From NCBI GenBank assembly GCA_045106455.1, contig JBGCEL010000004.1, positions 6,434-70,433 of the forward strand: DNA of 64,000 nucleotides. The letters run 5' to 3'. Under the pieces are notes generated by a model. It was not told the DNA's origin and searched no databases. It saw only the letters and a program-made list of their open reading frames with translations. The DNA comes from Gammaproteobacteria bacterium. GTDB lineage: Bacteria; Pseudomonadota; Gammaproteobacteria; Steroidobacterales; JBCCMA01. Position 1 is the first letter of the stretch; each line of letters starts with the position of its first letter. Positions 25,470 through 55,167 of the stretch are shown here, in pieces. The position numbers and the translations under genes were made by a program.

Positions 25470-27227
25470 ATGACGAAAGACTGTGCAACTCGGTGGCTCT
25501 CTTTGCTTTGCAGTATGATCCCCGGCGTTCGCACCGCGTATTATGTCAATGCGGCAACACCTACTTGTGAGCAGCACATTGTCGCCAGCTACCCAGATGG
25601 CGCCACACCAAACGACGCTATTGAAGCGCTTGTACGCGACACACTGGTTGCGCAAGAGGAAATTGCTCGGCCCGTGCCGGGCGTGGCTATCCCGTCCAAA
25701 AGCTGGGCACTGGCACGACTCGTCGCGGTCGCCAACAGCGTGGGCGTCGTTGCACTTGAATTCGATGACACGACACAAGAGCAGCTAGCCGCTATCGGCC
25801 AACTCGTCGCGTGGGCTGGCCAATGGGCCACACTCGCACAGCCCGCTGCCATGGCGGTCAACCGCCACGAGCCAGACCTGAACCTGGCAAACGTGCTGCT
25901 GGAAGCCGCCACACTTGATCAAGCGCTCGCTAAGGCCTGTCGACACTTGTCCGGGAAGTTTGGCGGCACTCGTGTTGCCATCGGGCTGCACGCGGCGGAC
26001 GCCGTTTCTCTTGCCGCCGTCTCGGATCGCGCAGCATTCGACCGCCGCACGCAAAGCGCCGACCTGTATACGGTCGCGATGAATGAAGCGTTTGATCAAA
26101 GCCGTATTGTCGCCCACCCGCACACGGACACTACCGTTGCCGCCGTTAGCGTCGGCCACCGCAAGCTCGCCGATGCCGAGCGCTCCTGCGCGTGCAGCGT
26201 GCCACTTGGCACGAGCGGCGATCCGGCAGGCATCGTCACGCTGCTGCGCGCTGAATCCAAACCATTCACCGATGACGACATGGCGATGTTGCAACCGTAC
26301 GCCGCTTTGCTCGGGCACATCATCCACGTTCGCCGTCGGGCTGAGCAGGGACCTTGGCGTCGCCTGCGTCAGTCCATGCAGAGTTGGCGCAAACATTGGC
26401 TCATGGCCAATGCCCCGCGTCGCCGGATGGCGGTGGTCGGTGCCGCGGCCGTCATTGCGTTTCTGGCTCTGGGCTCTGCCCCGTATCAGGTGGGCGCACC
26501 GGCGGTTCTGGCCGGCACTTCGGAGCGCACCCTCGCCGCTCCGGTGGACGGTTACTTAAGCGAGGTGCACGTGCGCCCCGGCGCACGCGTTGCGAGTGGT
26601 CAAATTTTAGCCACGCTCGACCCGGCGCCACTGGAACGCCAACGCCGACAGTTGCAGGGCCAGCGTAGCCAACTCAACGGCGAGTACAACGTCGCGCTGG
26701 GCAAATTAGACGGTGCCGCGGCCCGCATTTTGCAGTCTCAACTCGCCCAAACTCATGTCCAGATCGAACATCTGGATGCGCAGCTCTCAAGACTCAATAT
26801 CACGGCGCCATTCGACGGCCTGGTTCTTGATGGCGATCTGATGCACGCCGCGGGCGGCCCCGTCGCACTCGGCGACACCCTTTTCCGACTGACCCCGAAC
26901 GGGGGCTATCTGGTGCGCTTGCACGTCTCGGCGAGCGACGTCGAAGCGATTGGCATTGGCGCACGCGGCCGCCTAAAACTAGCGGCACTGCCCAATGCGC
27001 AGCTGGACATTGAAGTGGTGCGAATTAACGGCATCGCACAAACCGTTGACGGCCGCAGCGTGCTGGAGATGGAAGCCACCGTACACGGCAATCAGGACTA
27101 TCTGCGCCCCGGCATGAAAGGCGTTGCACGGCTCGATGCGGGGCACGCCCGAGTTCTGTGGATCTGGACGCATTCAATTTGGCAACGCATGAAGCTCTGG
27201 TTGTGGCGCTTCAGCCCGGTGGCATAA
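25470..27227 (+). CDS. GAF-domain / TM / HlyD-type periplasmic adaptor fusion protein
   Basis: The cytoplasmic N-half ends in a typical GAF C-terminus (SVPLGTSGDPAGIVTLLRAESKPFTDDDMAMLQPYAALLGHII). One TM helix (MAVVGAAAVIAFLALGSAPY). Adaptor motifs: PVDGYLSEVHVRPGARVASGQILATLD, a coiled-coil hairpin, and ITAPFDGLVLDGDL. Confidence 0.7.
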   Translation: MTKDCATRWLSLLCSMIPGVRTAYYVNAATPTCEQHIVASYPDGATPNDAIEALVRDTLVAQEEIARPVPGVAIPSKSWALARLVAVANSVGVVALEFDDTTQEQLAAIGQLVAWAGQWATLAQPAAMAVNRHEPDLNLANVLLEAATLDQALAKACRHLSGKFGGTRVAIGLHAADAVSLAAVSDRAAFDRRTQSADLYTVAMNEAFDQSRIVAHPHTDTTVAAVSVGHRKLADAERSCACSVPLGTSGDPAGIVTLLRAESKPFTDDDMAMLQPYAALLGHIIHVRRRAEQGPWRRLRQSMQSWRKHWLMANAPRRRMAVVGAAAVIAFLALGSAPYQVGAPAVLAGTSERTLAAPVDGYLSEVHVRPGARVASGQILATLDPAPLERQRRQLQGQRSQLNGEYNVALGKLDGAAARILQSQLAQTHVQIEHLDAQLSRLNITAPFDGLVLDGDLMHAAGGPVALGDTLFRLTPNGGYLVRLHVSASDVEAIGIGARGRLKLAALPNAQLDIEVVRINGIAQTVDGRSVLEMEATVHGNQDYLRPGMKGVARLDAGHARVLWIWTHSIWQRMKLWLWRFSPVA

Positions 27228-29351
27228 ATGCACGCAACCCACACACCCACGCCAACTACCTTTACGCCGTGCCTGACACGCGATGCCAGCGTGCATCGTC
27301 ACAGTTATCGCGGTACGCCGTGGTACATCGTGCACGACGGCATGACCGGACGTAGCCTTCATTTGGCCGCCGGTGCGTGGCGCGTTATCGACGCGATGGA
27401 CGGGCGCCGTTCGCCAGAGGAAATACTCGCGTACTTGCAACGCAACGGTGCACCGGTGCAGGCGAACGATGTGCACAGCGTCTGCGCCGAGTTACTGCGC
27501 GCCGGTCTCCTGCAAGGGACGACTTGTGAACAGGCGGATTCGCTGCAACTGGCAAGCCAGCCGCCCCCCCGCTGGAAACAGTGGCTAACCTCCCCACTTT
27601 CTATTCGCCTGCCGCTGCTTAACCCGCAAGTCTGGCTCGACAAACGTATTGCCAACGTAAGGCCCCTGTTCACGTCCACCACGCTGTGGCTGTGGCTGTC
27701 CGTCGTGATCACGGCCTGCTTTATGGCCGTCAGTCACCAAAACGAGCTGACCGAACGCGTCGCCTCGACCGTGATCAGCCCGTACGGCGTCATCCTGTTT
27801 TTGAGCGTTTACGCAGTAATGAAGTCACTGCACGAACTCGCCCATGCGTTTAGCATCCGGGCCTTCGGTGGCGCCGTCAACGAAATGGGCCTGGTGTTTC
27901 TGGTGTTCATGCCGGTGCCCTACGTCGATGCGGCCGCTGCCACCACGTTTGTCAACAAACGCCAGCGTATGCTCGTGAGCGCGTCGGGCATCATGGTAGA
28001 GGCATTTATTGGCGCGATCGCGCTGATACTCTGGACCAAAATCGAGCCCGGCGTGGTACGCGAAATCTGTTTCGCGGCGCTCATTATCGGTGGCGTCTCG
28101 ACGCTTTTGTTCAACGGCAATCCGTTGCTGCGCTTTGACGGCTACTACGTCTTAAGCGACGCTCTGGAAATACCAAATCTCGCCACCCGCTCGCGCCGCT
28201 ATTTGCACTATGCGATACAGCGGTACATGTTGCGCATGAAAGACGCTATTACTCCGGTTGTCACGCCCTCCGAACGCCTTTGGTTTGTGCTGTACGGCGT
28301 GCTGTCATCCATTTACCGTCTGATCATCCTTGCATTCATTGTCTGGTTTGTATCGCGCCAGGTGCCGTTGGTCGGCTACGCACTGGGCGCCTGGGTGTTT
28401 GTGTCGCAGTTGTTGCTACCAGCATTGCGTGGGTTTACCAGCGTCGTGACGCGGGCGCGCAACGCCACCAACTCGCGGCAAGTGTTATCCCGACTTAGCG
28501 CTACAACGCTCGCCTGCGGTGTCGTGACATTCGGCTTGCCAATGCCGGCGTGGAGCAGCGCTGAGGGCGTGATCTGGATGCCGCCAGAGGCGCAGGTTCG
28601 GGCACCCGTTGACGGCACGGTGGCCACAACACTGCTGGGCGACGGGACCAGCATCGTGCCCGAACAAGCCATTGTGCAGCTCGAAAGCCCGTCGCTTGTG
28701 AATGACGCGCGCGTGATAGCCGAACAGCTCAATGAAGTCCGCGCCCGCCAAAACCTTGCTCTGTTTCGCGATCGCAGCGCACTACGCAGCGTGGCTGAAA
28801 ACCTGCACCAGACCGAAATGCGTCTGACAGAAGCCCAACAGAAAGTACGTTCACTAACGCTAAAGAGTCCGGTCGCCGGTGCGCTGCATTTTTTCGATGA
28901 GAACACGCTCGCCGGGCGCTACGTGCGCAAGGGCGAGGTTCTCGCGTACGTGCGCGATGATCAGGCGCCTATTGTGCGCGTGGTCGTGAAACAAACGCAG
29001 ATCGAAAAACTACGCGACCCGAATACGAATGTTCGCGTGCTCATACCCGGTTATTTGGATCGGCAGTTCGCCGCCACTTTGGTGCAAGAGGTTGGGGCCA
29101 CGACTAACACGCTACCCAGCGCCGCATTGGGTAGCGCGGGCGGCGGCCGCATCGCCACAAATCTGACCGATGAACACCGTCGCACAGCGGCCGAGGACGT
29201 ATTTATCCTCGATGTCCAGCTGGCACCGAACGCACCCGACGTGGCGATCGGCACGCGCGTCTACCTACGCTTCGACTACGCCCCGGCTCCGTTGGCTCAG
29301 CAAATGCTGCGCAGCCTGCGCCAGCTCACGCTCGGTGGCAGCCGTGCGTAA
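27228..29351 (+). CDS. PqqD-like domain / site-2-protease (M50) membrane domain / HlyD-type adaptor tri-fusion
   Basis: TAAATG junction with the upstream gene. N-terminal WYIVHDGMTGRSLHLAAGAWRVIDAMDGRRSPEEILAYL...LLRAGLL is PqqD/RRE-like. Polytopic region carries HELAH (HExxH, 27831-27845) and NGNPLLRFDG (S2P NxxPxxxxDG, about 28113-28142). C-terminal adaptor region (VRAPVDGTV..., coiled coil, LKSPVAGAL). Confidence 0.75.
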   Translation: MHATHTPTPTTFTPCLTRDASVHRHSYRGTPWYIVHDGMTGRSLHLAAGAWRVIDAMDGRRSPEEILAYLQRNGAPVQANDVHSVCAELLRAGLLQGTTCEQADSLQLASQPPPRWKQWLTSPLSIRLPLLNPQVWLDKRIANVRPLFTSTTLWLWLSVVITACFMAVSHQNELTERVASTVISPYGVILFLSVYAVMKSLHELAHAFSIRAFGGAVNEMGLVFLVFMPVPYVDAAAATTFVNKRQRMLVSASGIMVEAFIGAIALILWTKIEPGVVREICFAALIIGGVSTLLFNGNPLLRFDGYYVLSDALEIPNLATRSRRYLHYAIQRYMLRMKDAITPVVTPSERLWFVLYGVLSSIYRLIILAFIVWFVSRQVPLVGYALGAWVFVSQLLLPALRGFTSVVTRARNATNSRQVLSRLSATTLACGVVTFGLPMPAWSSAEGVIWMPPEAQVRAPVDGTVATTLLGDGTSIVPEQAIVQLESPSLVNDARVIAEQLNEVRARQNLALFRDRSALRSVAENLHQTEMRLTEAQQKVRSLTLKSPVAGALHFFDENTLAGRYVRKGEVLAYVRDDQAPIVRVVVKQTQIEKLRDPNTNVRVLIPGYLDRQFAATLVQEVGATTNTLPSAALGSAGGGRIATNLTDEHRRTAAEDVFILDVQLAPNAPDVAIGTRVYLRFDYAPAPLAQQMLRSLRQLTLGGSRA

Positions 29352-29400
29352 GACCTTCACACACATAACGCTCCGCCAGAACACTCTGAGAAACACCACG

Positions 29401-30807
29401 ATGCATCAGTCATTTTTCGCCCCACTCGTTTGCGCCATCATGACCGTTGCTGTGGGCAGCACAACGCTTGCCGACGAGTTCGATGCGCACACCCTGAACT
29501 GCGTGATCCTGCCGGACGAGGTCGTCGACATCAGCAGCTCGGTGCCCGGTGTGCTCGAGCAAGTATTGGTGGAGCGCAGCGATAAGATTCAAAAGGGCCA
29601 GGTGCTGGCACGGTTGGAGGCAAGCGTAGAACAGGCGGTCACAGCGTTGGCGGAAGCACGTGCCACGGCCATCTCTGAACTGCGACTACGCCAGACCGAG
29701 CTCGGCTACGATGTTCAGCATCGTGATCGACTGTCTGAATTACAGCAACGCCATGTCGCATCATCGCAATCTTACGAAGACGCGCAGCGCACGGCAGAAG
29801 CCGCGCGCTGGCGACTCAAACTTGCCGAGGAGCGGCGCGAAGAGGCGCAGCTGGATCAACGCCGTGTCGCCGCCCTGCTCGCACAAAAGACCATTCGCAG
29901 TCCCATCGACGGCGTCGTTATCGCGCGGCATCACTCGGTGGGTGAACATGTTAATAGCGAGGCCGTGGTAACGGTCGCCAGGCTCGACCCGCTGCGGGTA
30001 GAGGTGCTTACGCCGATTGACATGTTCGGCAAAATTCAGCCGGGCATGCTGATGGACGTGCGTGCTGAGATCGACCCACAGACGCGGCACACGGCCGAAG
30101 TCGTGGCCGTGGACCCGGTAGCCGATGCCGGCAGCGGCATGTTTGCCGTTGAGCTCACGTTGCCCAACCCGAATAACGCGCTGCCTGCCGGCATCAAGTG
30201 TTACAGCGAACTGAGCCCAGGCGAGCAACCCTCGCCGACCGCCGCGCCCGCATCCACGGTGGCAGATGCACCCAACCCTGTGACGCCCTCGCCCACCCCC
30301 GTGATCACGGCAAACTTTGATGCCAGCGAACTGTGCCGTGTCTTTCCGGCTGTGACCGAACCCGAATCCATCTCGCGCTTGATGCGCACTGCGGTTGTGC
30401 TGGGTGGACGCGCGCAGAAAATACGCGCCGATGTTGCGGTAGCGAACGGCTACATTGTTGCCTCGCCCCGAGCCGACGCAGCGCAGCTTGAGCAGTGGCA
30501 AGAAACCTTAGGCGCGGCGGGCGAAAACGACACCGCCGTAATGCAACGCGGCGATTTTCGTCAGCGACTGACGATGGGCACCTACAACGGACCGCGCTCG
30601 GCAGAGCGCCGTCGCGATCAAATTGCCGCGCTTGGCGTAAGCGCAGAGGTGCTGCCACGCATGCGCAGCGCCACGGCCTGGAAGATTGAGGTGCAGCTTC
30701 CACAGCCGCTGCCAGCGCCAACCGGCACCCCGCCGCTGGCCGCCTTCATGGAACGCTTTAACAGCGAAGCCGTGCCGTGTGCATCCATTCGCGCGGCGAG
30801 CCTCTAA
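29401..30807 (+). CDS. membrane-fusion (RND/HlyD-type) periplasmic adaptor with Pro-rich linker and C-terminal SPOR-like domain
   Basis: Start at ATG 29401 (signal/anchor MHQSFFAPLVCAIMTVAVGSTTLA). Adaptor motifs VVDISSSVPGVLEQVLVERSDKIQKGQVLARLE and IRSPIDGVVIARH. PSPTAAPASTVADAPNPVTPSPTP linker. The C-terminal RLTMGTYNGPRSAERRRDQIAALGVSAEV is SPOR-like. The track start 29170 is an over-extension. Confidence 0.7.
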   Translation: MHQSFFAPLVCAIMTVAVGSTTLADEFDAHTLNCVILPDEVVDISSSVPGVLEQVLVERSDKIQKGQVLARLEASVEQAVTALAEARATAISELRLRQTELGYDVQHRDRLSELQQRHVASSQSYEDAQRTAEAARWRLKLAEERREEAQLDQRRVAALLAQKTIRSPIDGVVIARHHSVGEHVNSEAVVTVARLDPLRVEVLTPIDMFGKIQPGMLMDVRAEIDPQTRHTAEVVAVDPVADAGSGMFAVELTLPNPNNALPAGIKCYSELSPGEQPSPTAAPASTVADAPNPVTPSPTPVITANFDASELCRVFPAVTEPESISRLMRTAVVLGGRAQKIRADVAVANGYIVASPRADAAQLEQWQETLGAAGENDTAVMQRGDFRQRLTMGTYNGPRSAERRRDQIAALGVSAEVLPRMRSATAWKIEVQLPQPLPAPTGTPPLAAFMERFNSEAVPCASIRAASL

Positions 30808-30814
30808 CGTACTC

Positions 30815-33800
30815 ATGACACGCAAACGATCATCCAGACGGCCCGCAAACGCACTGTCGTTTGCGGTCGAGGCGCTTGAGCCGCGGCTGTTGCTGTCGGC
30901 GGACTGGGCGCTGGGCCTGGCGCCGGATGATGTGCGCGATGATCCGTTCGATCTGGATGCCGCCGCGGCCCATCGAGTGTTACGTGCACTCGGTTCTGAA
31001 GCCCCGTTGCCCGCCTCGATGGATCTGGAACATTTTATGGCACTGCAGCCGGCGACGCCGGAATTTGCCAATGATCAGTCCTTGGCAGAGAAGCCGTCGC
31101 GCACCGATTTTAGACTGCTATCCGGCGATGCCCCGCAAAGTGTTGACGACGGCTATTCGGTAAACGAAGACGAATCGATCACGTTCAACGCCGTGTGGTT
31201 CGACCCGGATTGGATCGCACGCCGTGAACTCACCATCGACAACAGCGCCAGCGCCACTGATCTCAACGACTTTCCGGTATTGATCACGCTCGACGCATCG
31301 CGTATCGACTACAGCCTTACCGAGGATGACGGCGACGATCTGCGCTTCACGGATGACGCCGGCAATCTGCTGGATTACGAGATCGAGCTGTGGGACGAAA
31401 GCGGCACGTCTTACGTATGGGTTCGAGTGGACAGCATTACGGCCGGCTCGACGACCGAGAGTATTTACATGTATTACGGCAATTCCAGCGCCGGCGAAGG
31501 GCAATCGCCCCGGGACGTCTGGGATGCCAACTATCAGCAAGTCCAGCATTTGGAGGAAACAAGCGGCAACTACGATGATTCCACCGCCAATGGTGTTGAC
31601 ATCAGTCTTAGCGGCGGCGACCCCCACGGCGACGACATGTTCATCGGTCCCGCCCATGCTTTTGACGGCACCAACGAACTCGACAGCCAACCTGAAGCAC
31701 TCGATGACAGTCGCGCTGCCGGCACAATTTCCATGTGGGTGGAATTTGATGAGCGCTCCGGCGTGATCAACCTGCTGACCTCGGACGTCGCGCGCGATCA
31801 AGCGATTTGGACTGACGACGGTACGTTTCACGTAGCAATGGCCACGAACTTGTTTACCTTTAGTAACCTGTCCGGAGGGTCGATCGAAAACGGCTGGAAT
31901 CAGGTCGTATTCACTTGGGACAGCGTCACCGGCGAACAGGCGCTTTACGCCAACGGCCTATTGGTCGATCAGGTATCGGTGGGCGCATGGGACCCGGATG
32001 GCGTGGACGGCAACACCATCAACATCGGTGGCGCCGCCGACGCCTTTCTGGGCTTTTTTCCCGAGCGCGACGGCCTCCAGGGCGGCATCGATGAAATACG
32101 CGTGTCCGACGTGGCGCGCTCGGCCGATTGGGTGGCCGCACAGTTCGCCACCATCAACGACAATTTTATTAGCTATGGTGCCGAAGAAGGGGCTGCCCGC
32201 GGCGTGCTGGAAAACGACACCGATGCCGAGAACGATGTGCTGGCCGCGGTCCTTGAAACCGGTCCGAGCAATGCCGCATCGTTTACGCTGTTTGCCGACG
32301 GCAGTTTCGAATACACGCCGCAGGCCAATTTCGTCGGCACCGACTCGTTTACCTACCGCGCCGATGACGGCAGCAGTCTCTCGGCGGCCGCGGCGACGGT
32401 CACCATCACCGTCAACGCGGTGAACGACGCCCCGACGTTCACGCTTGGCGGCGCACAGAACGTGAACGAAGATGGCGGTGGACAGAGTGTGGCGAATTTC
32501 TCCGTCGCCTCTGCGGGAGGCGGCGCTGATGAGTCGGGCCAAACGTTTACGTACATCGTCACCGGCGACAACCCGGGCCTGTTTTCGGTAGCACCGAGTA
32601 TTGATGCGGACGGCACACTTACCTACACGCTGGCACCTAACGCCGTTGGCAGCGCCAACCTGACCGTGCAGATGTCCGATTCCGGTGGCACGGCCAATGG
32701 CGGTAGTGACGCCGCTGTCGCGGAAAACTTTGTGATCAACGTTGCTCCCGTAAACGACGCACCTTCGGCCACGTTACTTGGCAACCAAACGGTCGTCGAG
32801 AATGCCGGCCCGCAGGCAGTGGCAAACTTTGCCGCCGGTTTTACGGGTGGTGGCGCGGATGAGAGCGGGCAAAACTTGTCTTATACGGTCATAACCGGTT
32901 TTCCCGCGCTGTTCAGCGCTGCTCCGGCCATCTCTCCCGACGGCACGCTGACGTTCACATTTGCCGACGGGATGTCTGGCTCCACCACGGTGGACGTGAT
33001 TGTCAGGGACGATGGGGGCACTGCGAATGGCGGTCAAGACACCTCTACCACCTACACCTTCACTCTGACCGCGACGCCGGCGTCGGTACCGCCGACGGCG
33101 CTGAACATGGATCAGACACTCAGCTACATTGAAGACAACACGCTCGACCTCGCGAACATCATTGTCAGCGACGGCGATGCCGGCGATGTGATTACCGCAA
33201 CGCTCACGCTGGCCGATCCATTGGCAGGTAGTTTGAGCACGCTCAGCGGCGCAGGCGAAACGTACGTAGCGGCCACGGGACGCTGGCGCATCGTGGGCAC
33301 GCAAGCCGAAGTGAACACCGCACTCGCCAACGTCACGTTCGTCCCGGCTGCCAACTACGCGCTGGATACGAGCATTGCAGTGAATATTCAAGATGCGGAC
33401 GGAACCGGCCCTGCGGATGGGCTGATCGAGCTTAACGCCCTGGCCGTTAACGATGCGCCCTCCGCAACGCTCGCAGGCGACGTCAACGTTTTGGAGAACT
33501 CAGGACCACAAACCATCGCCGGATTTGCGGTTGGATTTGTCGGTGGCGGTACTGATGAGGCCGGTCAAGCACTCACTTATATAGTGAGCGCTGATCAGGT
33601 CAACATGTTTAGCAGCGGCCCGGTGATTTCCTCGGACGGCACCCTGAGCTTCACCACCGCGGACAACGTTACCGGCAGTGCAACCGTTCGCGTGCGCGTG
33701 ATCGACGATGGCAACACCGCCAATGGCGGGCAAAATCAGTCGGTCGACTACACGTTCAATATCATCATCAATGATCGGCCCGATGCACCGACGACCACCA

Positions 33801-36550
33801 ACATGAACCAAGTCGTGCTGTATACCGAAGACGGCGGCCCGGTCGACTTTGCGGACATGGTGGTGAGCGACGACGATCCGGGCGAGACGATTACCGCAAC
33901 GCTAACACTCGCTGATCCCACAGCCGGCGTGTTGACCACGCTCAGCGGTTCGGGCGAGACCTACAATGCCGTTGCCGGTCAGTGGCAAATCACCGGCAAC
34001 GCAGCCACCGTGAATGCGGCGCTTGCCAATCTATCGTTCGCGCCCGGTGCAAACTACGCGCTCGATACGAGCATCAACGTGCGTATTGTCGACGCCGCCG
34101 GCACTGGCCCGTCCGACGGAACGATCGCGCTGCAGGCGATCGCCATCAACGATACACCCCAGGCCATCTTTGCCGGCGATATTGCCGTGGACCAGAACGC
34201 CGGAGCTCAAACTTTTGCAGGCTTCGCGACACCGTCCCCCGGTGGTGGCACAGATGAACTCGCACAAACATTTACCTATACCGTCACCGTGGATAACGGC
34301 GCTTTATTTAGCGTTGCGCCCGCCATCACGCCCGACGGTACGCTCACGTTTACGGCCGCGGACAACACTTCCGGCAGCACCACGGTACGCGTGCGCGTCA
34401 CCGATAGCGGCGACACCGTCAATGGCGGTCAAGACCAGTCGATCGAATATGTGTTCCAAATTGACATCGGCGCACCCACTGCGACCAACTTGAATCAGGT
34501 CGTCAACTACATTGAAGACGGCGACCCGGTTGGGTTTGATGCCATTGTCGTAAGCAATGCTGCCCCGGATGAAACCATTACAGCGACACTCAGCCTGAGC
34601 GATCCGGCCGCCGGATCGCTGTCCACTGCAAGCGGTTTGGGCGAGACATTGACCACCTCAGGACAGTGGCGAATCACCGGCACCGTCGCACAGGTCAACG
34701 CCGCACTTGCCGACGTCACGTTTACGGCTGCGAACAATTACGCACAAGACTTGAGCATTGTCGTGCGCATCACCGATGCGGCCGGAAACGGGCCTGCTGA
34801 TGGTTTGCTGGCCCTCCAGGCAACCGCCGTCAATGATGCACCACTGGCAAGCCAGCTCAATCAAATCCAGAATTTTCTGGAAGACACCATTGACGTGGCG
34901 CTCAACGACATTGTGGTCAGTGATGTTGACGCCGGCGACGTTGTTTCTGCCACGTTAACCCTGGACAACCCGGCGGCAGGACAGCTGTCGAGCTCGAGTG
35001 GCAACGGCGAATCCTATGACGCACGCAGCGGCACCTGGCGCGTCAGTGGTAGCACGGCGCAAGTGAGTGCCGCCCTGGCCGCTGTCGTGTTCGAACCGCT
35101 GAATGATTTTGCCGGCAGTGTCAGCGTACGCACACAGATTGTGGATCAAGACGGTGCCGGGCCCGATGCCGGCGTCATTACTCTGCAGGCCACGGCCGTA
35201 AACGATGCACCAACCGTCGCCGTTTCCGGCGATTTGGTGGTTGACGAAGACGCCCCGGCCCAACGCATAGCCGGCTTTGCAAACGTGCTAGACAACGGCG
35301 GCGCGGACGAGAGCGGTCAAACCATCGTCTACAGTCTCAGCACCGACAATGAAGATTTATTCCGGGTCGCACCCTCCATCAGCGAGACGGGCGAACTCCA
35401 TTACGAGCTTGCCGCCAACGCCAACGGCACCGCCAACATCACCGTCGTGGCGCGCGATGATGGCGGTCGCGACAACGGCGGCGTCGACACGGCTCCTACA
35501 CAGCAGTTCGTGATTCAGGTCAATCCTGTCAACGACGCGCCGGAAGCAACCAGCCAGTTTGTGGTCGCGCCGCCCTCTGGCATTGTGGTGCTGTCAGCGG
35601 CTTCGTTCGGATTTACCGATCCCGCCGATGGCGATACCTTCGAAGGCGTATTTATTACAAGTTTGCCAGCGCAAGGCGAACTGTTGCTCGACGGTCAACC
35701 CGTGGCCGCCGGCGCGTTCGTTTCGGCCGCCGATCTTGTCGCAAATCGGCTGTCGCTGTCGTCGTTTGCCATACCCGGCGATAGCCTGCTACTGAGTTTC
35801 GATTTTCTAGTCCGTGACTCGGGTGGTACCGCCGATGGCGGCACCGACGTGGCGGTCAAGACCAGCACGATTACGATATCTGTCGACGTACCCAAGACGG
35901 ACGGCACCACGAACACAACACCAGCCGTGATCTCAGAAGCCGACGCCTCGGCCGACACGACCACCGCAACGGTCGTCAGCGACGCGGATCAGTCGACCGA
36001 TGAACAGCGGTCTGCTCCCGCGATCGACCTGAGCACGCCGGCAAGCCCTGCAACCCTTGCGCCCACGGTCGCCGTCACAACGCCGGTGACGAGCCTGCTC
36101 GAGATTCCCCAAGCCGCCGATGCAACCCAAGCGGCGAAGACTTTCAGTCCGGCGGTATCGCGTGTGCTGGTTTCACTGCTCGAAAATGTCCGCTCCGGCA
36201 TTGGCGATGCCACTGTCATCCAGACCACGGCCACCACGACGCTTGCGGCCGTCACCGAGATACTCGTGGAGCAACTTAGCGACCTGCGCGACGAAACCGG
36301 CGCCGAGCAGGCCTCGGAGGAACTGGTCATCATGCAGTCCAGCGCGGTGGCCTTCGGCTTGTCGGTAGGCTACGTCTCCTGGTTGCTGCGTGGCGGTGTG
36401 TTGGTCAGCAGCATGCTTACCTCCCTGCCGGCCTGGCGCTTTATTGATCCATTGCCGATTTTCTCGGGCGTACGACAAGGTGACGAGGACGAAGAGTCGT
36501 TGCAGGATATCGTCAGCGCCGACGAGCACGACACAGGACCACAAGCGTGA
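30815..36550 (+). CDS. 1911-aa repeat adhesin-like protein: LEPR-XLL N-terminus, DUF2341 + LamG-like, about 100-aa VNDAP-delimited repeats, C-terminal membrane anchor
   Basis: ATG 30815 lies 8 nt after the upstream stop. N-terminus MTRKRSSRRPANALSFAVEALEPRLLLSAD. DUF2341-like block (RRELTIDNSASATDLNDFPVLITLD...YVWVRVDSI...IYMYYGN). LamG-like block (...IDEIRVSDVARSADWVAAQF). Ten repeat modules follow. C-terminal hydrophobic segment AVAFGLSVGYVSWLLRGGVLVSSMLTSLPAW, then an acidic tail. Confidence 0.8.
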   Translation: MTRKRSSRRPANALSFAVEALEPRLLLSADWALGLAPDDVRDDPFDLDAAAAHRVLRALGSEAPLPASMDLEHFMALQPATPEFANDQSLAEKPSRTDFRLLSGDAPQSVDDGYSVNEDESITFNAVWFDPDWIARRELTIDNSASATDLNDFPVLITLDASRIDYSLTEDDGDDLRFTDDAGNLLDYEIELWDESGTSYVWVRVDSITAGSTTESIYMYYGNSSAGEGQSPRDVWDANYQQVQHLEETSGNYDDSTANGVDISLSGGDPHGDDMFIGPAHAFDGTNELDSQPEALDDSRAAGTISMWVEFDERSGVINLLTSDVARDQAIWTDDGTFHVAMATNLFTFSNLSGGSIENGWNQVVFTWDSVTGEQALYANGLLVDQVSVGAWDPDGVDGNTINIGGAADAFLGFFPERDGLQGGIDEIRVSDVARSADWVAAQFATINDNFISYGAEEGAARGVLENDTDAENDVLAAVLETGPSNAASFTLFADGSFEYTPQANFVGTDSFTYRADDGSSLSAAAATVTITVNAVNDAPTFTLGGAQNVNEDGGGQSVANFSVASAGGGADESGQTFTYIVTGDNPGLFSVAPSIDADGTLTYTLAPNAVGSANLTVQMSDSGGTANGGSDAAVAENFVINVAPVNDAPSATLLGNQTVVENAGPQAVANFAAGFTGGGADESGQNLSYTVITGFPALFSAAPAISPDGTLTFTFADGMSGSTTVDVIVRDDGGTANGGQDTSTTYTFTLTATPASVPPTALNMDQTLSYIEDNTLDLANIIVSDGDAGDVITATLTLADPLAGSLSTLSGAGETYVAATGRWRIVGTQAEVNTALANVTFVPAANYALDTSIAVNIQDADGTGPADGLIELNALAVNDAPSATLAGDVNVLENSGPQTIAGFAVGFVGGGTDEAGQALTYIVSADQVNMFSSGPVISSDGTLSFTTADNVTGSATVRVRVIDDGNTANGGQNQSVDYTFNIIINDRPDAPTTTNMNQVVLYTEDGGPVDFADMVVSDDDPGETITATLTLADPTAGVLTTLSGSGETYNAVAGQWQITGNAATVNAALANLSFAPGANYALDTSINVRIVDAAGTGPSDGTIALQAIAINDTPQAIFAGDIAVDQNAGAQTFAGFATPSPGGGTDELAQTFTYTVTVDNGALFSVAPAITPDGTLTFTAADNTSGSTTVRVRVTDSGDTVNGGQDQSIEYVFQIDIGAPTATNLNQVVNYIEDGDPVGFDAIVVSNAAPDETITATLSLSDPAAGSLSTASGLGETLTTSGQWRITGTVAQVNAALADVTFTAANNYAQDLSIVVRITDAAGNGPADGLLALQATAVNDAPLASQLNQIQNFLEDTIDVALNDIVVSDVDAGDVVSATLTLDNPAAGQLSSSSGNGESYDARSGTWRVSGSTAQVSAALAAVVFEPLNDFAGSVSVRTQIVDQDGAGPDAGVITLQATAVNDAPTVAVSGDLVVDEDAPAQRIAGFANVLDNGGADESGQTIVYSLSTDNEDLFRVAPSISETGELHYELAANANGTANITVVARDDGGRDNGGVDTAPTQQFVIQVNPVNDAPEATSQFVVAPPSGIVVLSAASFGFTDPADGDTFEGVFITSLPAQGELLLDGQPVAAGAFVSAADLVANRLSLSSFAIPGDSLLLSFDFLVRDSGGTADGGTDVAVKTSTITISVDVPKTDGTTNTTPAVISEADASADTTTATVVSDADQSTDEQRSAPAIDLSTPASPATLAPTVAVTTPVTSLLEIPQAADATQAAKTFSPAVSRVLVSLLENVRSGIGDATVIQTTATTTLAAVTEILVEQLSDLRDETGAEQASEELVIMQSSAVAFGLSVGYVSWLLRGGVLVSSMLTSLPAWRFIDPLPIFSGVRQGDEDEESLQDIVSADEHDTGPQA
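32420..35890 (+). repeat. ten tandem ~110-120-aa modules of three types (order A-A-B-A-B-A-B-B-A-C) within the adhesin gene
   Basis: Most junctions carry VNDAP. Type A consensus: ...ENxGxQxxxxFAxxxxGGGxDExGQxxTYxV...LFSxxPxIxxDGTLTFT...GSxxVxVxVxDxGxTANGGxD. Type B consensus: ...NxxQxxxYxEDxxxxxxxIVVSDxDxGxxITATLTLxDPxAGxLxTxSGxGETY...WxIxGxxAxVNxALAxxxF...DAxGxGPxDGxIxLxAxA. Boundaries are approximate. Confidence 0.7.
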
Positions 36551-39051
36551 AACGACCGTCAGCACGCACAATGGTAACCATCGCCATTACTTTGGTGATG
36601 CTCAGCCTGTTTTTATTCAGCACCGTGCTTGGCATGTTCCCCGACATCGAAAAGACCCGCCGTGAAGGGCGTGTGACCGTCGCTGAGCTCATGGCACTTG
36701 GCCTGATTAATGACATCGGTAACGAACGAGAAGATCGCATCGGACAAACGCTGCGTTTTGCCGTAGAGCGAAATTCTGACATCGAATCAGCCGCCGTGCG
36801 CGACGCCAGCGGCCTTGCCATTGGCACCGCCGGTGACCACGCGGGCTACTGGACCCCCATCCAAAGCGGGCAATCGAGCGTGGCGCAGATCACTGTGCCA
36901 ATCATGCGCGGGAACACACAATGGGGTTCACTCGAACTGCGTTTCCGTGAGCACCAGCGACCGGGCGTGGTGGGTATGCTTGATCGGCCTATCGTGCGCT
37001 TTGCACTGTATCTGCTCGTTGGCGGGTTCTTTGCCACCTATTTTATTTTGGGTCGCATGCTGCGCGCTTTAGATCCCACGCAGGCCGTGCCCTCGCGCGT
37101 ACGCTCAGCGCTGGACACCATAAGCGAAGGCCTCATCGCCATCGACACCAAAGGTCAGGTGATGCTTGCCAACGCCGCCTTCGCGACCCTCTGCGGGCGC
37201 GATGCCGATGCACTTGTGGGCATAAGCGTCGCAGATCTTGCGTGGGTTGGCGATGAAGACGGTCAGGTTAAGCATCCGTGGGAGCGCACGCTGCAAGACA
37301 GTCAGGCCGTTATTAACGAATCGATGACGCTCAAAGATAAAGACGGGAAGCAGCGCACGTTCCTCGTTAACTGCTCACCGGTGCTCGGCGGCAACGGCAA
37401 AGCACTTGGTGCACTGATTGGTCTTGGCGACGTTACCGAACTCGAGGAAAAAGAAATTCAGTTACGGCGCTCCAAAGAAGAGGCCGAAGCCGCCAACCGC
37501 AGCAAAAGCGAATTTTTGGCCAACATGAGTCATGAAATTCGAACGCCCATGAACGCTATTCTGGGCTTTACGAACCTGCTCAAGCGCGGCTACGCCAAGA
37601 ACGCACAGCAGCGTCAGGAATATCTGCAGACCATTGAGTCCAGTGGTTCGTTCTTGCTCGAACTTATTAACGATTTGCTGGATCTGTCCAAAATCGAGGC
37701 CGGCTCGCTGACCATGGAGACCCTCGAGTGTGAGGCGCATTTGGTCGTTCGCGACGTCTGCACGACGCTGCAGCTGCGTGCGCAGGAAAACAACGTTGAC
37801 CTCTCATTTGCCGTCACCACAGAAATACCCCAGCACATTCAGACCGACCCGACGCGTTTGCGGCAGATCGTGACAAACCTTCTGGGTAACGCCATCAAAT
37901 TCACCTCGGACGGCACCGTGGATGTCACCGTGGCACTCGATGCCGACGACCCTACCCTGCTCGCCGTGGCCGTCACCGACTCGGGCGTGGGCATGACAGA
38001 GGACCAAACGAAGGCGATTTTCGAGCCCTTCGTGCAGGCTGATTCATCCATTACGCGACGCTTTGGCGGCACGGGTCTCGGCCTGTCCATTAGCCGACGC
38101 TTCGCACGTGCACTGGGTGGCGACATTTATGTCGACAGCACGGCCGGCGTTGGCAGCACCTTCACAGCGCGGATTGCCACCGGCAATACCGAAGGTGTGC
38201 CTCGCATCTCGCCCGAAGCAGCCTCCCAGGCCGTGCACATCGAAGAGGCGGTTTCCACGTCAAGCCTGCATCTGCCCAATGCGCATGTGCTGGTGGCAGA
38301 CGACAACAAACAGAATCGCGATCTGCTGCGTCTGGTGCTGGAGGAGCACGGTTTGCGTGTGACAACCGCCGTTAATGGCGAGGAGGCCGTTGCGGCTGTG
38401 TCCGAAAGCATGTTCGACATTATATTGATGGACGTGCAAATGCCGGTAATGGACGGCTACGAGGCCACACGCGCCATACGATCCAGCGGTATCGAAGTGC
38501 CCATTATTGCCCTTACGGCTCTGCTCATTGGCGAGGCTCGAGACGCACTGCTTGAAGCAGGCTTCGACGCCTTCTTCGCCAAACCCATCGATGTAGACGG
38601 CCTGCTTGAACTTATCGCCGAGAAGCTCGGCAGCCTGCCCGCGTGCACGCTGCAGCAGACCCCGCGCGACGGGCCGACCCCGGATACCGAATCGACCGCG
38701 CCCATTGCGTCGCGTTTGCCAGTACACGACCCGCGCTACCGGGACATTGTGCAAGAATTTGTCGACCAGCTTGATGACACGATCAAACAGCTGCGCGATG
38801 CGTTTGATGTGGGCGATCACAAACGTCTGGCTGAGGTAGCGCACTATCTCAAGGGCGTTGCTGGCAGCATGGGCTATCCCGACTTCACCGCGCCTTGCAG
38901 AGATTTAGAGCACGCGGTCACCTCACGACACGATGCCAATATTCGCGCCAGCCTGAGCGTCATCGACGCACTCGCCGCGCGCGTCGTTTTGAGCGACGTC
39001 TCGGTTGCGGTGACGGACAGCCGCACAGCTTCAGTCGCAGCAGCACAATAA
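36547..39051 (+). CDS. hybrid sensor histidine kinase (2 TM, PAS, HisKA, HATPase_c, REC, HPt)
   Basis: GTG 36547 overlaps the adhesin stop (GTGA). H-box SEFLANMSHEIRTPMNAILGF. G-boxes DSGVGM and GGTGLGLSISRRFA. Receiver VLVADDNKQNRDLL...DIILMDVQMPVMDG. HPt-like AHYLKGVAGSMGY. Confidence 0.9.
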   Translation: MKRPSARTMVTIAITLVMLSLFLFSTVLGMFPDIEKTRREGRVTVAELMALGLINDIGNEREDRIGQTLRFAVERNSDIESAAVRDASGLAIGTAGDHAGYWTPIQSGQSSVAQITVPIMRGNTQWGSLELRFREHQRPGVVGMLDRPIVRFALYLLVGGFFATYFILGRMLRALDPTQAVPSRVRSALDTISEGLIAIDTKGQVMLANAAFATLCGRDADALVGISVADLAWVGDEDGQVKHPWERTLQDSQAVINESMTLKDKDGKQRTFLVNCSPVLGGNGKALGALIGLGDVTELEEKEIQLRRSKEEAEAANRSKSEFLANMSHEIRTPMNAILGFTNLLKRGYAKNAQQRQEYLQTIESSGSFLLELINDLLDLSKIEAGSLTMETLECEAHLVVRDVCTTLQLRAQENNVDLSFAVTTEIPQHIQTDPTRLRQIVTNLLGNAIKFTSDGTVDVTVALDADDPTLLAVAVTDSGVGMTEDQTKAIFEPFVQADSSITRRFGGTGLGLSISRRFARALGGDIYVDSTAGVGSTFTARIATGNTEGVPRISPEAASQAVHIEEAVSTSSLHLPNAHVLVADDNKQNRDLLRLVLEEHGLRVTTAVNGEEAVAAVSESMFDIILMDVQMPVMDGYEATRAIRSSGIEVPIIALTALLIGEARDALLEAGFDAFFAKPIDVDGLLELIAEKLGSLPACTLQQTPRDGPTPDTESTAPIASRLPVHDPRYRDIVQEFVDQLDDTIKQLRDAFDVGDHKRLAEVAHYLKGVAGSMGYPDFTAPCRDLEHAVTSRHDANIRASLSVIDALAARVVLSDVSVAVTDSRTASVAAAQ

Positions 39052-39095: not shown

Positions 39096-40904
39096 ATGAC
39101 AACGCGCCCAACAACGGATGGAACACTGGAGGTCGCCGCCGCGAGCAAAAGCGCCGGCGCCGACCCTAAGATTATGATCGTGGACGACGCTTCCATGACC
39201 ATCCGAATTCTGCAAACGTTTTTGGAAGATGCCGGCTATCGTCGCTTCGTGACCACCAGCGATTCGACCCAAGCCATTGAGCTGGTCGAGTCCGAGCGAC
39301 CTGATGCGTTGCTGCTGGACCTGCATATGCCAAGTGTTAGCGGCTTTGATATTTTGGAGCAAATTCGCGCGAGCTTCGACATTCGCCACACTCCCGTTAT
39401 TATTCTCACCGCCTCCGATGACGGCAACAGCAAACTAAAAGCACTGGAGCTTGGTGCTACGGACTTTTTGGCCAAGCCGGTCGATACCAGCGAACTGGCA
39501 CTGCGCCTGCGCAATACTCTGGCCACCAAAACCTATCAGGATCGACTGACGTACTACGATCCGCTCACCGATTTACCCAATCGAAAACTGCATAGCGAGC
39601 GACTCTCGCGCAGTCTCGTCCGCGCATTTCGAAGTAGACAACGCGGCGCCATGCTGCACATCAATCTCGACCGCTTTCGCCGCGTAAACTCCTCGCTCGG
39701 CCACGCTGCCGGCGACCATCTGCTGCGGCACACGGCGCAGCGACTCGATCGAATTGTGCGCCAACTCGACAACTCCGTGTCGTTGTCCATGGAACCCGGT
39801 ACACCCACGGCCGCTCGTTTGGGTGGCGACGAATTCGGAGTTCTACTGCCCACCGTCGAAAGCAACGATGCCGCCCGCGCCATTGCAGAGCAGATCCTCG
39901 GTGCCATCACCAAGCCGGTGGAATGGAAAGGCAGCGAAGTGGTGGTTACCGCCAGCATTGGCGTCGAGACGTTTCCAGACTCCGCCACCACCACGCAGCA
40001 GATTATTCGCAACGTCACGCTGGCGGCCGCTCGCGCCCGGTCGCTGGGTCGCAACCGGCATGAAGTATATTCGCCGCTGTCCGAGGCCAGCGTGTCGCAG
40101 GAAGTGCATCTTGAAAGCGATCTGCATCGCGCCCTGTCGCGCAACGAGCTGCGCTTGCACTATCAACCCAAAGTGGACCTGGCGACGGGCAATATCGGCA
40201 GCGCCGAGGCACTATTGCGCTGGGAGCACAAAACCCGCGGTCTGGTGAGTCCCAGCGAATTTATCCCGCTAGCCGAACAAACCGGTCTCATCGTGCCGTT
40301 TGGCACCTGGGTCATCCAAACCGCCTGCGCGCAAATCCGGCAGTGGTGCGATGACGGCCTGCCGCCGCTGCCGGTGGCGGTAAACGTCTCCAGCCTGCAG
40401 TTTGCCAACGGTGACCTGTTATCCATCGTGGCCGACGCCATTACCACCGCCGGTATCGCGCCTGCGCTGCTCATTTTGGAGCTCACCGAAACCGCCGTTC
40501 TAAAAAACACCGAAGAGACGATTAGCACTCTGCACGCGATTCGCTCGCTCGGGGTCAAACTGTCGCTGGATGATTTCGGAACCGGTTACTCGTCACTGTC
40601 GTATCTTGAGCGACTGCCAATCGACCAACTAAAAATCGATCGGTCGTTTGTCGAGAAAATTGAAGACGGCAACACCGCGCCCATCGTAGACGCCGTGATC
40701 GCCATGGCCAAGAGTCTCGGCATGCACACCGTGGCGGAGGGTGTCGAAGAACCCTGTCAGGTGGACTACCTCAAGGCCCGCCACTGCGATCAATATCAAG
40801 GCTTTTACTTTTCGCGCGCCGTAGACCCCGTGTCGTTCGGCAACCTGGTGGCCGAACAAATGAAGCGCGAGCGGCCGCAAGTCAGCACGGCGCAAGCACG
40901 CTAA
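39096..40904 (+). CDS. response regulator with REC-GGDEF-EAL domains (c-di-GMP turnover)
   Basis: Start re-picked at ATG 39096. REC IMIVDDASMTIRIL...LLLDLHMPSVSGFD. Intact RLGGDEFGVLL. EAL-domain motifs SAEALLRWEH and SLDDFGTGYSSLSYL. Confidence 0.9.
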   Translation: MTTRPTTDGTLEVAAASKSAGADPKIMIVDDASMTIRILQTFLEDAGYRRFVTTSDSTQAIELVESERPDALLLDLHMPSVSGFDILEQIRASFDIRHTPVIILTASDDGNSKLKALELGATDFLAKPVDTSELALRLRNTLATKTYQDRLTYYDPLTDLPNRKLHSERLSRSLVRAFRSRQRGAMLHINLDRFRRVNSSLGHAAGDHLLRHTAQRLDRIVRQLDNSVSLSMEPGTPTAARLGGDEFGVLLPTVESNDAARAIAEQILGAITKPVEWKGSEVVVTASIGVETFPDSATTTQQIIRNVTLAAARARSLGRNRHEVYSPLSEASVSQEVHLESDLHRALSRNELRLHYQPKVDLATGNIGSAEALLRWEHKTRGLVSPSEFIPLAEQTGLIVPFGTWVIQTACAQIRQWCDDGLPPLPVAVNVSSLQFANGDLLSIVADAITTAGIAPALLILELTETAVLKNTEETISTLHAIRSLGVKLSLDDFGTGYSSLSYLERLPIDQLKIDRSFVEKIEDGNTAPIVDAVIAMAKSLGMHTVAEGVEEPCQVDYLKARHCDQYQGFYFSRAVDPVSFGNLVAEQMKRERPQVSTAQAR

Positions 40905-54000: not shown

Positions 54001-54494
54001 TCGAGCACCTCTACGCGGCGCGCCGCCGAGCTCGTGCTGACCAGCTCTGCGCGACGCACAAAGCCGTACTCCTCGCAGGTACTCCATAAATAGCGAAACG
54101 TCAGCCCGAGAGTCTGATTAGTTTCCTCAAACAGCAGCTTATCGCCAAGGGTGTTTTTGTACAGGTTCCGCTGCACCTCGAAACGCCCGTCGTGTTCGCG
54201 ATTAAACGGCTCCCAAATAACCTCACCGTTTGCGCCCGCAACACGCAGCAGCGTTTTGCACCCGGTATGTAATGCACTGTCGTAAATCTGGTCGACCGCG
54301 GAGTACGGAAACAACGCCGTCTCGGGCGAGACGCGGCCCGCCGTAATGCCACCGTTGGAGGCGACAAACAGCCAGTGGTCGCTGTCCGACACCACGCTAA
54401 TAAAAAACGGCGCCATCTGATCGACGTTTTCAATCGCGTAGAAACGCTCGTCGCCAAGCGAAACGAAATGTCCCGTTACGCCGTGTTGATTCAT
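51063..54494 (-). CDS. large cytoplasmic conserved protein, possibly (alpha/alpha)6 glycoside phosphorylase/hydrolase-like
   Basis: Uninterrupted coding frame of 1143 aa from ATG 54494 (track start 54548). No signal peptide. RPEWNDANNALVG resembles the (D/E)WND catalytic-acid motif of GH94-clan phosphorylases. It sits among beta-glucanase genes. The functional call is low-confidence. Confidence 0.45.
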   Translation of the reverse strand: MNQHGVTGHFVSLGDERFYAIENVDQMAPFFISVVSDSDHWLFVASNGGITAGRVSPETALFPYSAVDQIYDSALHTGCKTLLRVAGANGEVIWEPFNREHDGRFEVQRNLYKNTLGDKLLFEETNQTLGLTFRYLWSTCEEYGFVRRAELVSTSSAARRVEVLDGIQNILPAGTPRGTQAMASNLVDAYKWNEFETDSQLALFTLFSGITDRAEPCESLRATTVFGTGLPNPRTLLSSHPIASFRRGETLIDEIHNRGVRGSYLQVATLTLEPNQPKRWSLVANTEQTQSDVVRLREQLHTSENIDALLQASVERGSDGLARIMGASDGMQWTAEENVSTHHYANVLFNVMRGGIFDENYRVPRKHFERHLQRFNAPLAARCSAAIAQWPESLSVSDMRTRIEKIGDAGLTRLGHEFLPLRFGRRHGDPSRPWNQFAIRLNDDQGRRLLAYQGNWRDIFQNWEALLYSFPDFVDNIIAKFVNASTVDGYNPYRITSDGIDWEVEEPDDPWSYIGYWGDHQIIYLLKLLELSEQFFPGRIAHGLRDRVYSYANVPYRIKPFDDLVHDAASTVEYDHDLADRIEARVAAMGADGKLLQDGAGAVYQVNLLEKLVVPLLAKLSNLVVDGGIWLNTQRPEWNDANNALVGQGLSMVTLYYMRRYVRWMASLIDGDTQSVELSAEVVEWLESTATALAAVRDDLGQGPLDATRRLALLQALGGAASAYRLTLYANERFSGSRNIAMSDVRSLLDDALMVIDHSIVSGKREDGLYQAYNLLELNDGTAEVDTLYPMLEGQVAALSSGAVAPAEAVALLNTLFGSALYRADQRSFLLYPDRDLPNWLQKNRVPEKDVLANPLLNAMIENDDRRLIERDAVGTWRFAAALTNADALEAALADLGDHYAAQMSASREPLLALYEQVFNHKAFTGRSGGMFGFEGLGSIYWHMVSKLLLAIQENYFAAREQGSDNAVCVQLAEHYYRVREGIGFNKTPAEYGAFPTDPYSHTPKHAGAQQPGMTGQVKEEVLTRFAELGIRVTNGQVKFEPSLLRRREFATQAGSLRYLNVDQDWKTASVPAQALAFTWCQVLIIYRLDASGPAGVEVFEADGKSQHFTALELPADVSNHLFLREGKVRSVVVTLRSEDILD

Positions 54495-55134: not shown

Positions 55135-55167
55135 ACAATTGACAGCGTTGTCAATTGTCGCTAAAAC
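55135..55167 (+). promoter_or_regulatory. candidate sigma-70 promoter overlapped by a 10-bp inverted repeat upstream of the giant GH16 gene
   Basis: ACAATTGACA-gcgt-TGTCAATTGT (55135-55158). The left arm contains a perfect -35 TTGACA (55139-55144). TAAAAC at 55162-55167 follows after a 17-nt spacer. It lies about 55-85 nt upstream of ATG 55221. Confidence 0.35.

Follow-up and report, generated by a model that had tools for sequence, protein, structure and literature searches.

In this study, we analysed a 64-kb stretch of gammaproteobacterial DNA (64,000 nucleotides, the whole of which is called the window below) and, within it, one gene whose product joins a cytoplasmic GAF domain to a HlyD-type periplasmic adaptor (GAF-HlyD). 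We believe that GAF-HlyD serves a conserved and widespread envelope module as its GAF-bearing membrane-fusion (periplasmic adaptor) subunit. Judged from sequence, structure models and analogy with better-known secretion systems, this reading, taken together with the mechanism proposed below, has in our view a probability of roughly 0.55. The module is composed of GAF-HlyD, a PqqD-like and M50-like protein fused to a HlyD part (M50-HlyD), and a smaller HlyD protein; most loci add a SecA_DEAD gene, many a DUF3467 gene, and some a TolC-like gene. A giant protein that opens with a LEPR-XLL leader is encoded beside it and is probably its cargo.

The long cytoplasmic region, single transmembrane (TM) helix and short HlyD-type adaptor that an earlier reading of this DNA from its letters alone (the sequence-only reading) had described were all confirmed by Pfam, by hydropathy and by a full-length AlphaFold2 (AF2) model, which was built on 22 homologues and reached a mean predicted local distance difference test (pLDDT) score of 83. 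The sole hydrophobic segment lies at about residues 320-338 (maximum Kyte-Doolittle (KD) value 2.04), and the R/K-rich stretch RRRAEQGPWRRLRQSMQSWRKHWLMANAPRRR stands just before it. From this basic N-flank and the positive-inside rule, about 319 residues are predicted to be cytoplasmic, close to the earlier estimate of about 310. A GAF signature had been claimed from the peptide SVPLGTSGDPAGIVTLLRAESKPFTDDDMAMLQPYAALLGHII, which corresponds to residues 243-285, and the claim holds: of the PF13185 / PF01590 pair tested, GAF_2 matches residues 147-286 (33.4 bits against a gathering cut-off of 28.6, E 6e-8) and GAF matches residues 149-282 (25.6 bits against 22.4). The AF2 model has the canonical GAF topology (a1-b1-b2-a2-b3-a3-b4-b5-a5) at residues 126-292 with a pLDDT of about 85-93, so that profile search and structure prediction, the two checks that had been proposed for this region, both recognise a GAF domain. 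Pfam GAF was also matched by 14 of the 16 family members that were scanned individually (best E 6e-12). In the model, helices 268-292, 295-312 and 316-334 form a nearly unbroken path that leads from the final helix of GAF into the membrane.

A second, weaker GAF-like half had also been suggested. What precedes the GAF domain is not a half but a whole separate domain; the likeness to GAF survives as weak fold matches that are mixed with Roadblock and Cache folds. When residues 1-123 were modelled alone by AF2, the pLDDT and the predicted template modelling score (pTM) were 82 and 0.76, respectively. Foldseek against PDB ranked GAF domains best (3o5y; 4g3v, query TM-score (TMq) 0.65; 4mn7; PDE6C), the matches being weak, and the list also mixes in Roadblock/LAMTOR/MglB and Cache/PAS folds. 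No PDB fold was matched at E <1e-3 by Foldseek (best 1.3e-3), and no Pfam model matched these residues. Many members of the GAF-HlyD family lack this N-domain or have low-complexity sequence in its place, and others possess it. On its modelled fold, the N-domain appears to be GAF-like or roadblock-like, and GAF-like only loosely.

In the periplasmic part, Biotin_lipoyl_2 (residues 354-384), HlyD_D23 (354-549) and HlyD_3 (444-548) matched above the Pfam cut-offs, and Foldseek returned MacA (3fpp, E 1.3e-16), MexA, AcrA and EmrA at E values from 1e-16 to 1e-12. GAF-HlyD is an adaptor without a membrane-proximal domain. Its scores against TIGR01843 (HlyD of type I secretion) and TIGR01730 (RND efflux adaptor) were 48 and 74.3 bits, respectively, below the cut-offs of 208.65 and 94.9. 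The Trp-rich C-terminal helix sits where the membrane-proximal domain usually is and may lie on the membrane surface; W579 of this helix is kept in 162 of 163 family members.

The gene neighbourhood was compared across 46 related loci, on which the module components were mapped by tblastn; part of these loci came from a metagenome scan with an alignment of the proteins P0001 and P0002, and a metagenome scan with the M50-HlyD protein as query gave no match. The sequence-only reading had noticed the M50-HlyD gene in the window and had proposed a survey of such pairs. Wherever enough DNA downstream was available (36 distinct loci, without exception), the gene next after GAF-HlyD, on the same strand, is M50-HlyD. 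No nucleotide separates the two genes of the window, the GAF-HlyD stop codon being followed at once by the ATG of M50-HlyD, and from this arrangement the second gene is predicted to be translationally coupled to the first. Most loci also carry a third HlyD gene, which codes for about 300 aa. SecA_DEAD was found in 24 of the 29 loci that could be assessed; its product corresponds to an N-terminal piece of SecA, about 620-690 aa long. Immediately 5' of GAF-HlyD, a DUF3467 gene (about 96-108 aa) was found in about 21 loci (L009:544-786, L010:9540-9806, L012:9641-9931, L013:9308-9634 and about 17 further loci), and it may be a fifth component of the module. A TolC-family outer-membrane gene lies inside the module in two loci (L012:14857-16272 and L045:16865-18178), which supports an envelope-spanning assembly.

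Five loci have no adjacent SecA_DEAD gene, namely the window, L014, L018, L012 and L013. No SecA_DEAD, TolC or DUF3467 homologue was found in the 64 kb of the window, where a tblastn search with five SecA_DEAD orthologues returned nothing at E<1; an unlinked SecA_DEAD copy is possible. The gap between the M50-HlyD and third HlyD genes of the window is 49 nt (29352-29400) and holds no SecA_DEAD gene. L014 and L018 contain the closest full-length relatives (about 40% identity), and all three loci have the order GAF-HlyD, M50-HlyD, HlyD, giant protein, without SecA_DEAD. Their third HlyD proteins are 468-511 aa long with a conserved C-terminal extension; where SecA_DEAD is present, the orthologues have no such extension and measure about 300 aa.

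The members of this SecA-less subclade (the window, P0002, L014, L015, L016 and L018) share six substitutions. One is in the GAF domain, where E259 is replaced by a hydrophobic residue (L259 at 26244-26246 in the window), and the other five, D372, T520N, P521G, F532L/I and K554R, are in the periplasmic domain. E259 is present in 157 of 163 family members and replaced in all six members of the subclade. We considered whether the window protein is decaying and rejected this, because most of its deviations are shared with P0002, a core set (positions 259, 372, 520, 521, 532 and 554) recurs in the relatives of about 40% identity, and neither the genes nor the catalytic motifs show any damage. The shared deviations are a stable lineage signature and not decay, and the window locus belongs, with L014 and L018, to a divergent subclade in which SecA_DEAD is missing from the module.

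The giant protein contains a tandem-95 repeat (139.5 bits, cut-off 90) together with Big_9, DUF2341 and cadherin-like domains, and its N-terminus, MTRKRSSRRPANALSFAVEALEPRLLLSAD (30815-30913, with ALEPRLLLSAD), matches the LEPR-XLL model NF012209 (LEPR-8K) at 23.6 bits (cut-off 17). A leader of the same kind, in which [LFV]E[PD]R[LIV]L[LFY][SAD]A comes after a basic stretch, opens giant proteins adjacent to the module in the window and at L001:16502, L002:16964, L005:4249(-), L011:11102 and 15367, L014:10702, L018:~15690 and L037:17624. In other loci, giant genes encode up to 13,080 aa, and their N-termini lie beyond the DNA obtained. We believe that the giant LEPR-XLL protein is probably the cargo of the module and that the basic and LEPR-XLL stretch looks like a dedicated leader for it. 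The C-terminal 90 or so residues of the giant protein (36272-36529) comprise a hydrophobic segment, a PAWRxIDPLP motif and an acidic tail, are 43% identical to those of the L002 and L011 giant proteins, and may serve as a membrane anchor or sorting element. No paper linking the LEPR-XLL leader to the GAF-HlyD module was found in the literature. The sequence-only reading had not taken up the giant LEPR-XLL protein or the missing SecA_DEAD gene.

The M50-HlyD protein resembles proteases that process the leaders of ribosomally synthesised and post-translationally modified peptides (RiPPs). It scored 161 bits against daptide_HExxH (NF041824, residues 14-410) and 43 bits against YydH/LiaK (NF058609, residues 149-318), below the cut-offs of 300 and 225, respectively. 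Residues 40-95 (27345-27512) form a region like PqqD and the RiPP recognition element (RRE), which is sub-threshold at 17.7 bits, and the L003 orthologue carries a recorded PqqD match. The motifs HELAH (202-206; 27831-27845) and NGNPLLRFDG (296-305) are intact, and HlyD_3 matches at 544-619. This resemblance, together with the PqqD/RRE-like region, suggests leader-peptide recognition and cleavage, in which the PqqD-like domain would recognise the LEPR-XLL leader and the HExxH site would cleave it.

The most likely mechanism, in our view, is as follows. The three HlyD-type proteins would build a periplasmic conduit like that of type 1 secretion around the polytopic M50-like protein. With its cytoplasmic PqqD-like domain, this protein would recognise the giant cargo by the LEPR-XLL leader, and its HExxH site would process that leader. 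The N-domain and GAF domain of the adaptor would form a cytoplasmic input, which a nearly unbroken helix connects to the TM helix. The input could be engagement of the cargo through its leader, engagement of a partner such as the cytoplasmic domain of the M50-like protein, or a metabolite; transmitted across the membrane, it would promote or stabilise adaptor assembly, in a manner comparable to the N-terminus of HlyD. In the subclade of the window, the module would run without an adjacent SecA_DEAD gene and with a third adaptor that carries a SPOR-like tail.

The analogy with HlyD is instructive. When HlyD is deprived of its cytoplasmic N-terminal helix, TolC recruitment and HlyB activation both fail, and adaptors that are anchored by a TM helix and have no membrane-proximal domain work with transporters whose cargo comes from the cytoplasm (PMC4446572). 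The premise of the sequence-only reading that adaptors normally have only a few cytoplasmic residues was therefore overstated, since this N-terminus of HlyD is needed for both TolC recruitment and HlyB activation (PMC4446572). A more far-reaching form of the proposal can be offered tentatively, as a conjecture that is less probable than not: the GAF-HlyD/PqqD-M50-HlyD/HlyD set, with or without SecA_DEAD, DUF3467 and TolC, may be a dedicated secretion and processing pathway for giant LEPR-XLL proteins, in which the RRE-like domain captures the leader, the GAF adaptor is the gate that licenses a hetero-oligomeric three-adaptor conduit, and the subclade of the window has been rewired without SecA_DEAD by way of a peptidoglycan-anchored (SPOR-like) third adaptor.

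Several points weigh against the reading of GAF-HlyD as the input subunit of such a module. The pTM of the full-length AF2 model is 0.47, which makes the relative orientation of the domains in it unreliable. The ligand or partner of the GAF domain cannot be inferred from sequence. No ABC, RND or MFS transporter, outer-membrane factor or SecA_DEAD gene lies within the 64-kb window, so that neither the energy source nor the exit channel of the locus is identifiable there. The loci were gathered by GAF-HlyD homology, and some come from related samples, so that the synteny counts are not fully independent. The window protein is also the most divergent of 164 members, deviating at 23 of 79 conserved columns (median 5); the second most divergent is P0002, which deviates at 21 of the 79 highly conserved columns. 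The window protein is substituted at E259 and P283 and at the periplasmic consensus positions R481, E488, F532, P521 and D372.

The next question is what the GAF domain does. Near-invariant residues of the family, most of them polar or small, are R168, G172, S185, M204, E206, Q210, P217, H230, P245 and G254; E206 is kept in 163 of 163 members, and R168, G172, S185, M204, Q210 and P217 are each kept in at least 94%. All ten are present in the window protein, and the core ones are also present in its SecA-less relatives. Near-invariant residues are clustered in strands b1/b2, in helix 195-210, which has the motif AAMDEAxDQ, and in the strand and helix that come next. The mean frequency of the top residue is 0.48 in the GAF region and thus higher than in the linker (0.38) and TM helix (0.37). 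By this pattern, the GAF domain is under constraint.

According to the model of the sequence-only reading, a diffusible small molecule (cAMP, cGMP, c-di-GMP, haem or another metabolite) would bind to the GAF domain and so allosterically gate assembly of the periplasmic complex, as a second input beside the histidine kinase and the REC-GGDEF-EAL protein encoded downstream. The bona fide GAF fold, the helical connection from GAF to TM helix in the AF2 model and the catalytically intact GGDEF-EAL gene in the same gene string agree with it, and the near-invariant cluster is compatible with a conserved pocket, but the conserved residues might just as well make up an interface for a protein or peptide. 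The motif of cyclic-nucleotide GAF domains is NKFDE (N[KR]x5-24Fx3DE). A regular-expression search for this cyclic nucleotide monophosphate (cNMP) signature found no match in the GAF-HlyD protein, and there was no close match among solved GAF domains with known ligands: a profile search of PDB sequences with the GAF domain gave weak generic GAF matches only, the best being 3eea at E 0.006 over 52 residues. A protein search with a GAF-only profile yielded three fragments and no pointer to a ligand class or to other architectures. Nor are the kinase and GGDEF-EAL genes constant in the module, as described below. We consider a small-molecule gate of this kind unlikely.

A docking platform for the SecA_DEAD ATPase, which would power translocation, is a further role that the cytoplasmic GAF region might play. 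It would fit the co-encoded SecA_DEAD gene of the 24 loci, and the change of the widely conserved E259 to a hydrophobic residue throughout the SecA-less subclade keeps it from being closed off entirely. The five loci without an adjacent SecA_DEAD gene, however, fully keep the GAF domain with its core residues, and this retention disfavours SecA docking. Furthermore, the presence of the extra N-domain does not track that of SecA_DEAD, and P0020, from the SecA-less locus L012, keeps E259. We therefore regard SecA docking as improbable.

About as improbable is a purely structural role, in which the GAF and N-domains would dimerise or scaffold the adaptor and fix its stoichiometry (e.g., as a trimer of dimers) without carrying any signal. 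Many GAF domains act mainly as dimerisation modules, no ligand motif was found here, and the N-domain is dispensable in many family members. But an invariant polar residue, E206, and the residues Q210, S185 and R168, each kept in at least 94% of members, fit a functional site better than a hydrophobic dimer interface, and the GAF region is better conserved than the linker or the TM helix.

Finally, an annotation artefact, with the true start downstream of the GAF region or with two genes fused by a sequencing error, can be dismissed: no obvious Shine-Dalgarno sequence precedes the ATG at 25470, but the order N-domain, GAF, TM, HlyD occurs in nearly all of the best 150 of 4,866 cluster representatives, the same architecture stands on dozens of independent contigs, Logan contig L004, an independent assembly, has the identical gene call, and a 242-nt intergenic region separates the start from the divergent GH16 gene upstream. 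The frame is closed upstream by a stop at 25446. A real start beyond the GAF region had been named by the sequence-only reading as what would undo its proposal; the N-terminal region is kept in most of the best 150 relatives, which argues against such a start.

The family itself is large. A profile search of 1.84 billion cluster representatives at a threshold of E<=1e-30 found 4,866 representatives, some of which may be paralogous HlyD proteins; the best 150 of them all scored at least 559 bits and were nearly all end-to-end matches (N-domain, GAF, TM, HlyD). The window protein covers positions 1-572 of the family profile, which was made from alignment A1, and is 64% identical to P0002 and 24-34% identical to other members. 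A scan of reference genomes with the single protein found only two relatives, at 28% identity, in Burkholderiales / beta-proteobacterial metagenome-assembled genomes.

A GAF protein with HlyD and biotin_lipoyl domains has been reported before (Kamneva, Poudel & Ward 2015, PLoS One, PMC4452313). The module described there comprises GAF-HlyD, a weak Peptidase_M50 with HlyD, a secondary SecA_DEAD protein and another HlyD protein, with Methylobacterium extorquens AM1 META1p2402-2399 as an example, and a "regulatory and sensory role" was suggested for GAF-HlyD. The fusion of GAF and adaptor in the window thus belongs to a known family that was described bioinformatically in 2015 and is functionally uncharacterised, and the sensory or regulatory idea of the sequence-only reading is not new either. 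Literature searches, including papers that cite the 2015 module, found no functional study of it. A "giant genes" preprint was considered as a description of this module and rejected, as it concerns SecA_DEAD domains inside giant proteins.

With the 2015 description and thousands of sequence clusters, the fusion of GAF and adaptor is in itself no discovery. The module, however, is very common, and three points now make it experimentally approachable. The genetic link to giant proteins with a basic and LEPR-XLL leader nominates a cargo and a signal. The likeness of the M50-like partner to RiPP-leader proteases, with its PqqD-like domain, nominates a recognition and cleavage step. The subclades without SecA_DEAD keep the core residues of the GAF domain, which argues that its task is another one than holding the ATPase. 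If GAF is indeed a cytoplasmic gate for the export of giant adhesin-like proteins, this would widen the repertoire of secretion systems and add a new kind of GAF output.

Table 1. Features of the GAF-HlyD gene and of the genes that follow it, in positions of the window
Feature	Position	Strand	Basis
GAF-HlyD adaptor gene (585 aa)	25470..27227	+	Open reading frame (ORF); family profile match 622.8 bits, E 9e-182
N-terminal cytoplasmic alpha/beta domain, residues 1-123 (a1-b1-b2-a2-b3-b4-b5-a3)	25470..25838	+	AF2, Foldseek
GAF domain	25908..26327	+	Pfam residues 147-286; structural limits 126-292; AF2 pLDDT about 88
Arg-rich helical linker from GAF helix a5 to TM helix, residues 293-315	26346..26414	+	AF2, R/K content
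Single TM helix, residues about 316-338, N-in	26415..26483	+	Hydropathy and AF2 helix 316-334
Periplasmic adaptor: lipoyl, alpha-hairpin (386-411 / 415-440), beta-barrel; residues 339-561	26484..27152	+	Pfam, Foldseek
Trp-rich C-terminal amphipathic helix, residues 562-585, LWIWTHSIWQRMKLWLWRF	27153..27224	+	AF2 helix 562-581
PqqD-like / M50-like HExxH membrane protease fused to C-terminal HlyD, 707 aa	27228..29351	+	NCBIfam, Pfam
Third HlyD-type adaptor, 468 aa, signal-peptide-like N-terminus, C-terminal SPOR-like extension of ~180 aa	29401..30807	+	TIGR01730
Giant repeat protein, 1911 aa, LEPR-XLL leader, C-terminal hydrophobic anchor	30815..36550	+	NCBIfam, Pfam
PAS-HisKA-HATPase-REC-Hpt hybrid histidine kinase	36547..39051	+	Pfam
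REC-GGDEF-EAL protein	39096..40904	+	Pfam; ORF opens at 38895

Among the neighbouring genes (Table 1), the M50-HlyD fusion, the downstream histidine kinase and the GGDEF-EAL protein named by the sequence-only reading were all confirmed. The third HlyD protein matches TIGR01730 at 121.7 bits, above the cut-off of 94.9. Its extension (30271-30804) follows a Pro/Thr-rich linker and contains, at about 30475-30654, a sub-threshold match to the peptidoglycan-binding SPOR domain (E 0.07). Because the ORF of the REC-GGDEF-EAL protein shares 157 nt with the end of the kinase gene, its likely start is the Met at 39096. The GGDEF, EALLR, DDFGTG and EGVE motifs are intact in this protein, no RxxD I-site was found in it at the canonical distance, and both it and the kinase look catalytically intact from their sequences. 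Among the surveyed loci, the kinase was found only in the window and in L002, where a homologous gene also follows the giant protein gene. Since it recurs only there, the kinase and the GGDEF-EAL protein are not fixed parts of the module.

Two other regions of the window, 2632-25410 and 51063-61433, are rich in large proteins of secreted or surface type. These include VIT-VWA, G8/CEMIP beta-helix and CHAT proteins, an S8 peptidase, a GH16 protein containing three internal repeats, a 1138-aa protein that includes a MauG-like di-haem region, and unannotated ORFs of 1161 aa and 2070 aa. A regular-expression search found no LEPR-type leader in the proteins of these two regions.

Among known systems, the nearest is the module of Kamneva 2015 (PMC4452313), which, as described there, shares with the window the protein with GAF and HlyD/biotin-lipoyl domains, the weak Peptidase_M50 with HlyD and the extra HlyD protein. 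In contrast to it, the module of the window, of L014 and of L018 lacks SecA_DEAD, and its third HlyD protein has a SPOR-like extension. The part of PMC4452313 that treats the module does not speak of a link with giant LEPR-XLL proteins.

E. coli HlyD is similar to GAF-HlyD in its N-in single TM anchor, in the succession of lipoyl, hairpin and barrel without a membrane-proximal domain, in its very large secreted cargo, and in having a cytoplasmic N-terminus, which HlyD needs in order to pass the signal of an engaged cargo on to the recruitment of TolC and the activation of the ATPase (PMC4446572). However, the cytoplasmic part of HlyD has about 60 residues, whereas that of GAF-HlyD has two folded domains; the partner of HlyD is an ABC transporter and not an M50-like protein, and the hairpin of GAF-HlyD is much shorter. 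MacA, MexA and AcrA give the best structural matches to residues about 339-561 of GAF-HlyD, but they have a membrane-proximal domain and essentially no cytoplasmic domain, and their partners are ABC or RND pumps.

GAF signalling proteins (PDE2/5/6, CyaB1/2, the NifA/FhlA type and GAF histidine kinases) resemble GAF-HlyD in that the C-terminal helix of the GAF domain leads to the output and in that two small alpha/beta domains stand in tandem. Unlike in these proteins, the output of GAF-HlyD is a transmembrane adaptor and not an enzyme or DNA-binding domain, the NKFDE motif and the context of a chromophore Cys are absent, and the first domain is not GAF by sequence. Similarly, the M50-like neighbour matches the models of RiPP-leader HExxH proteases (daptide, YydH/LiaK) and shares with them a PqqD/RRE-like N-terminal region, but it scores far below their cut-offs and is fused to HlyD, and it is presumed to act not on a small peptide but on a protein of about 1,900 to >13,000 aa.

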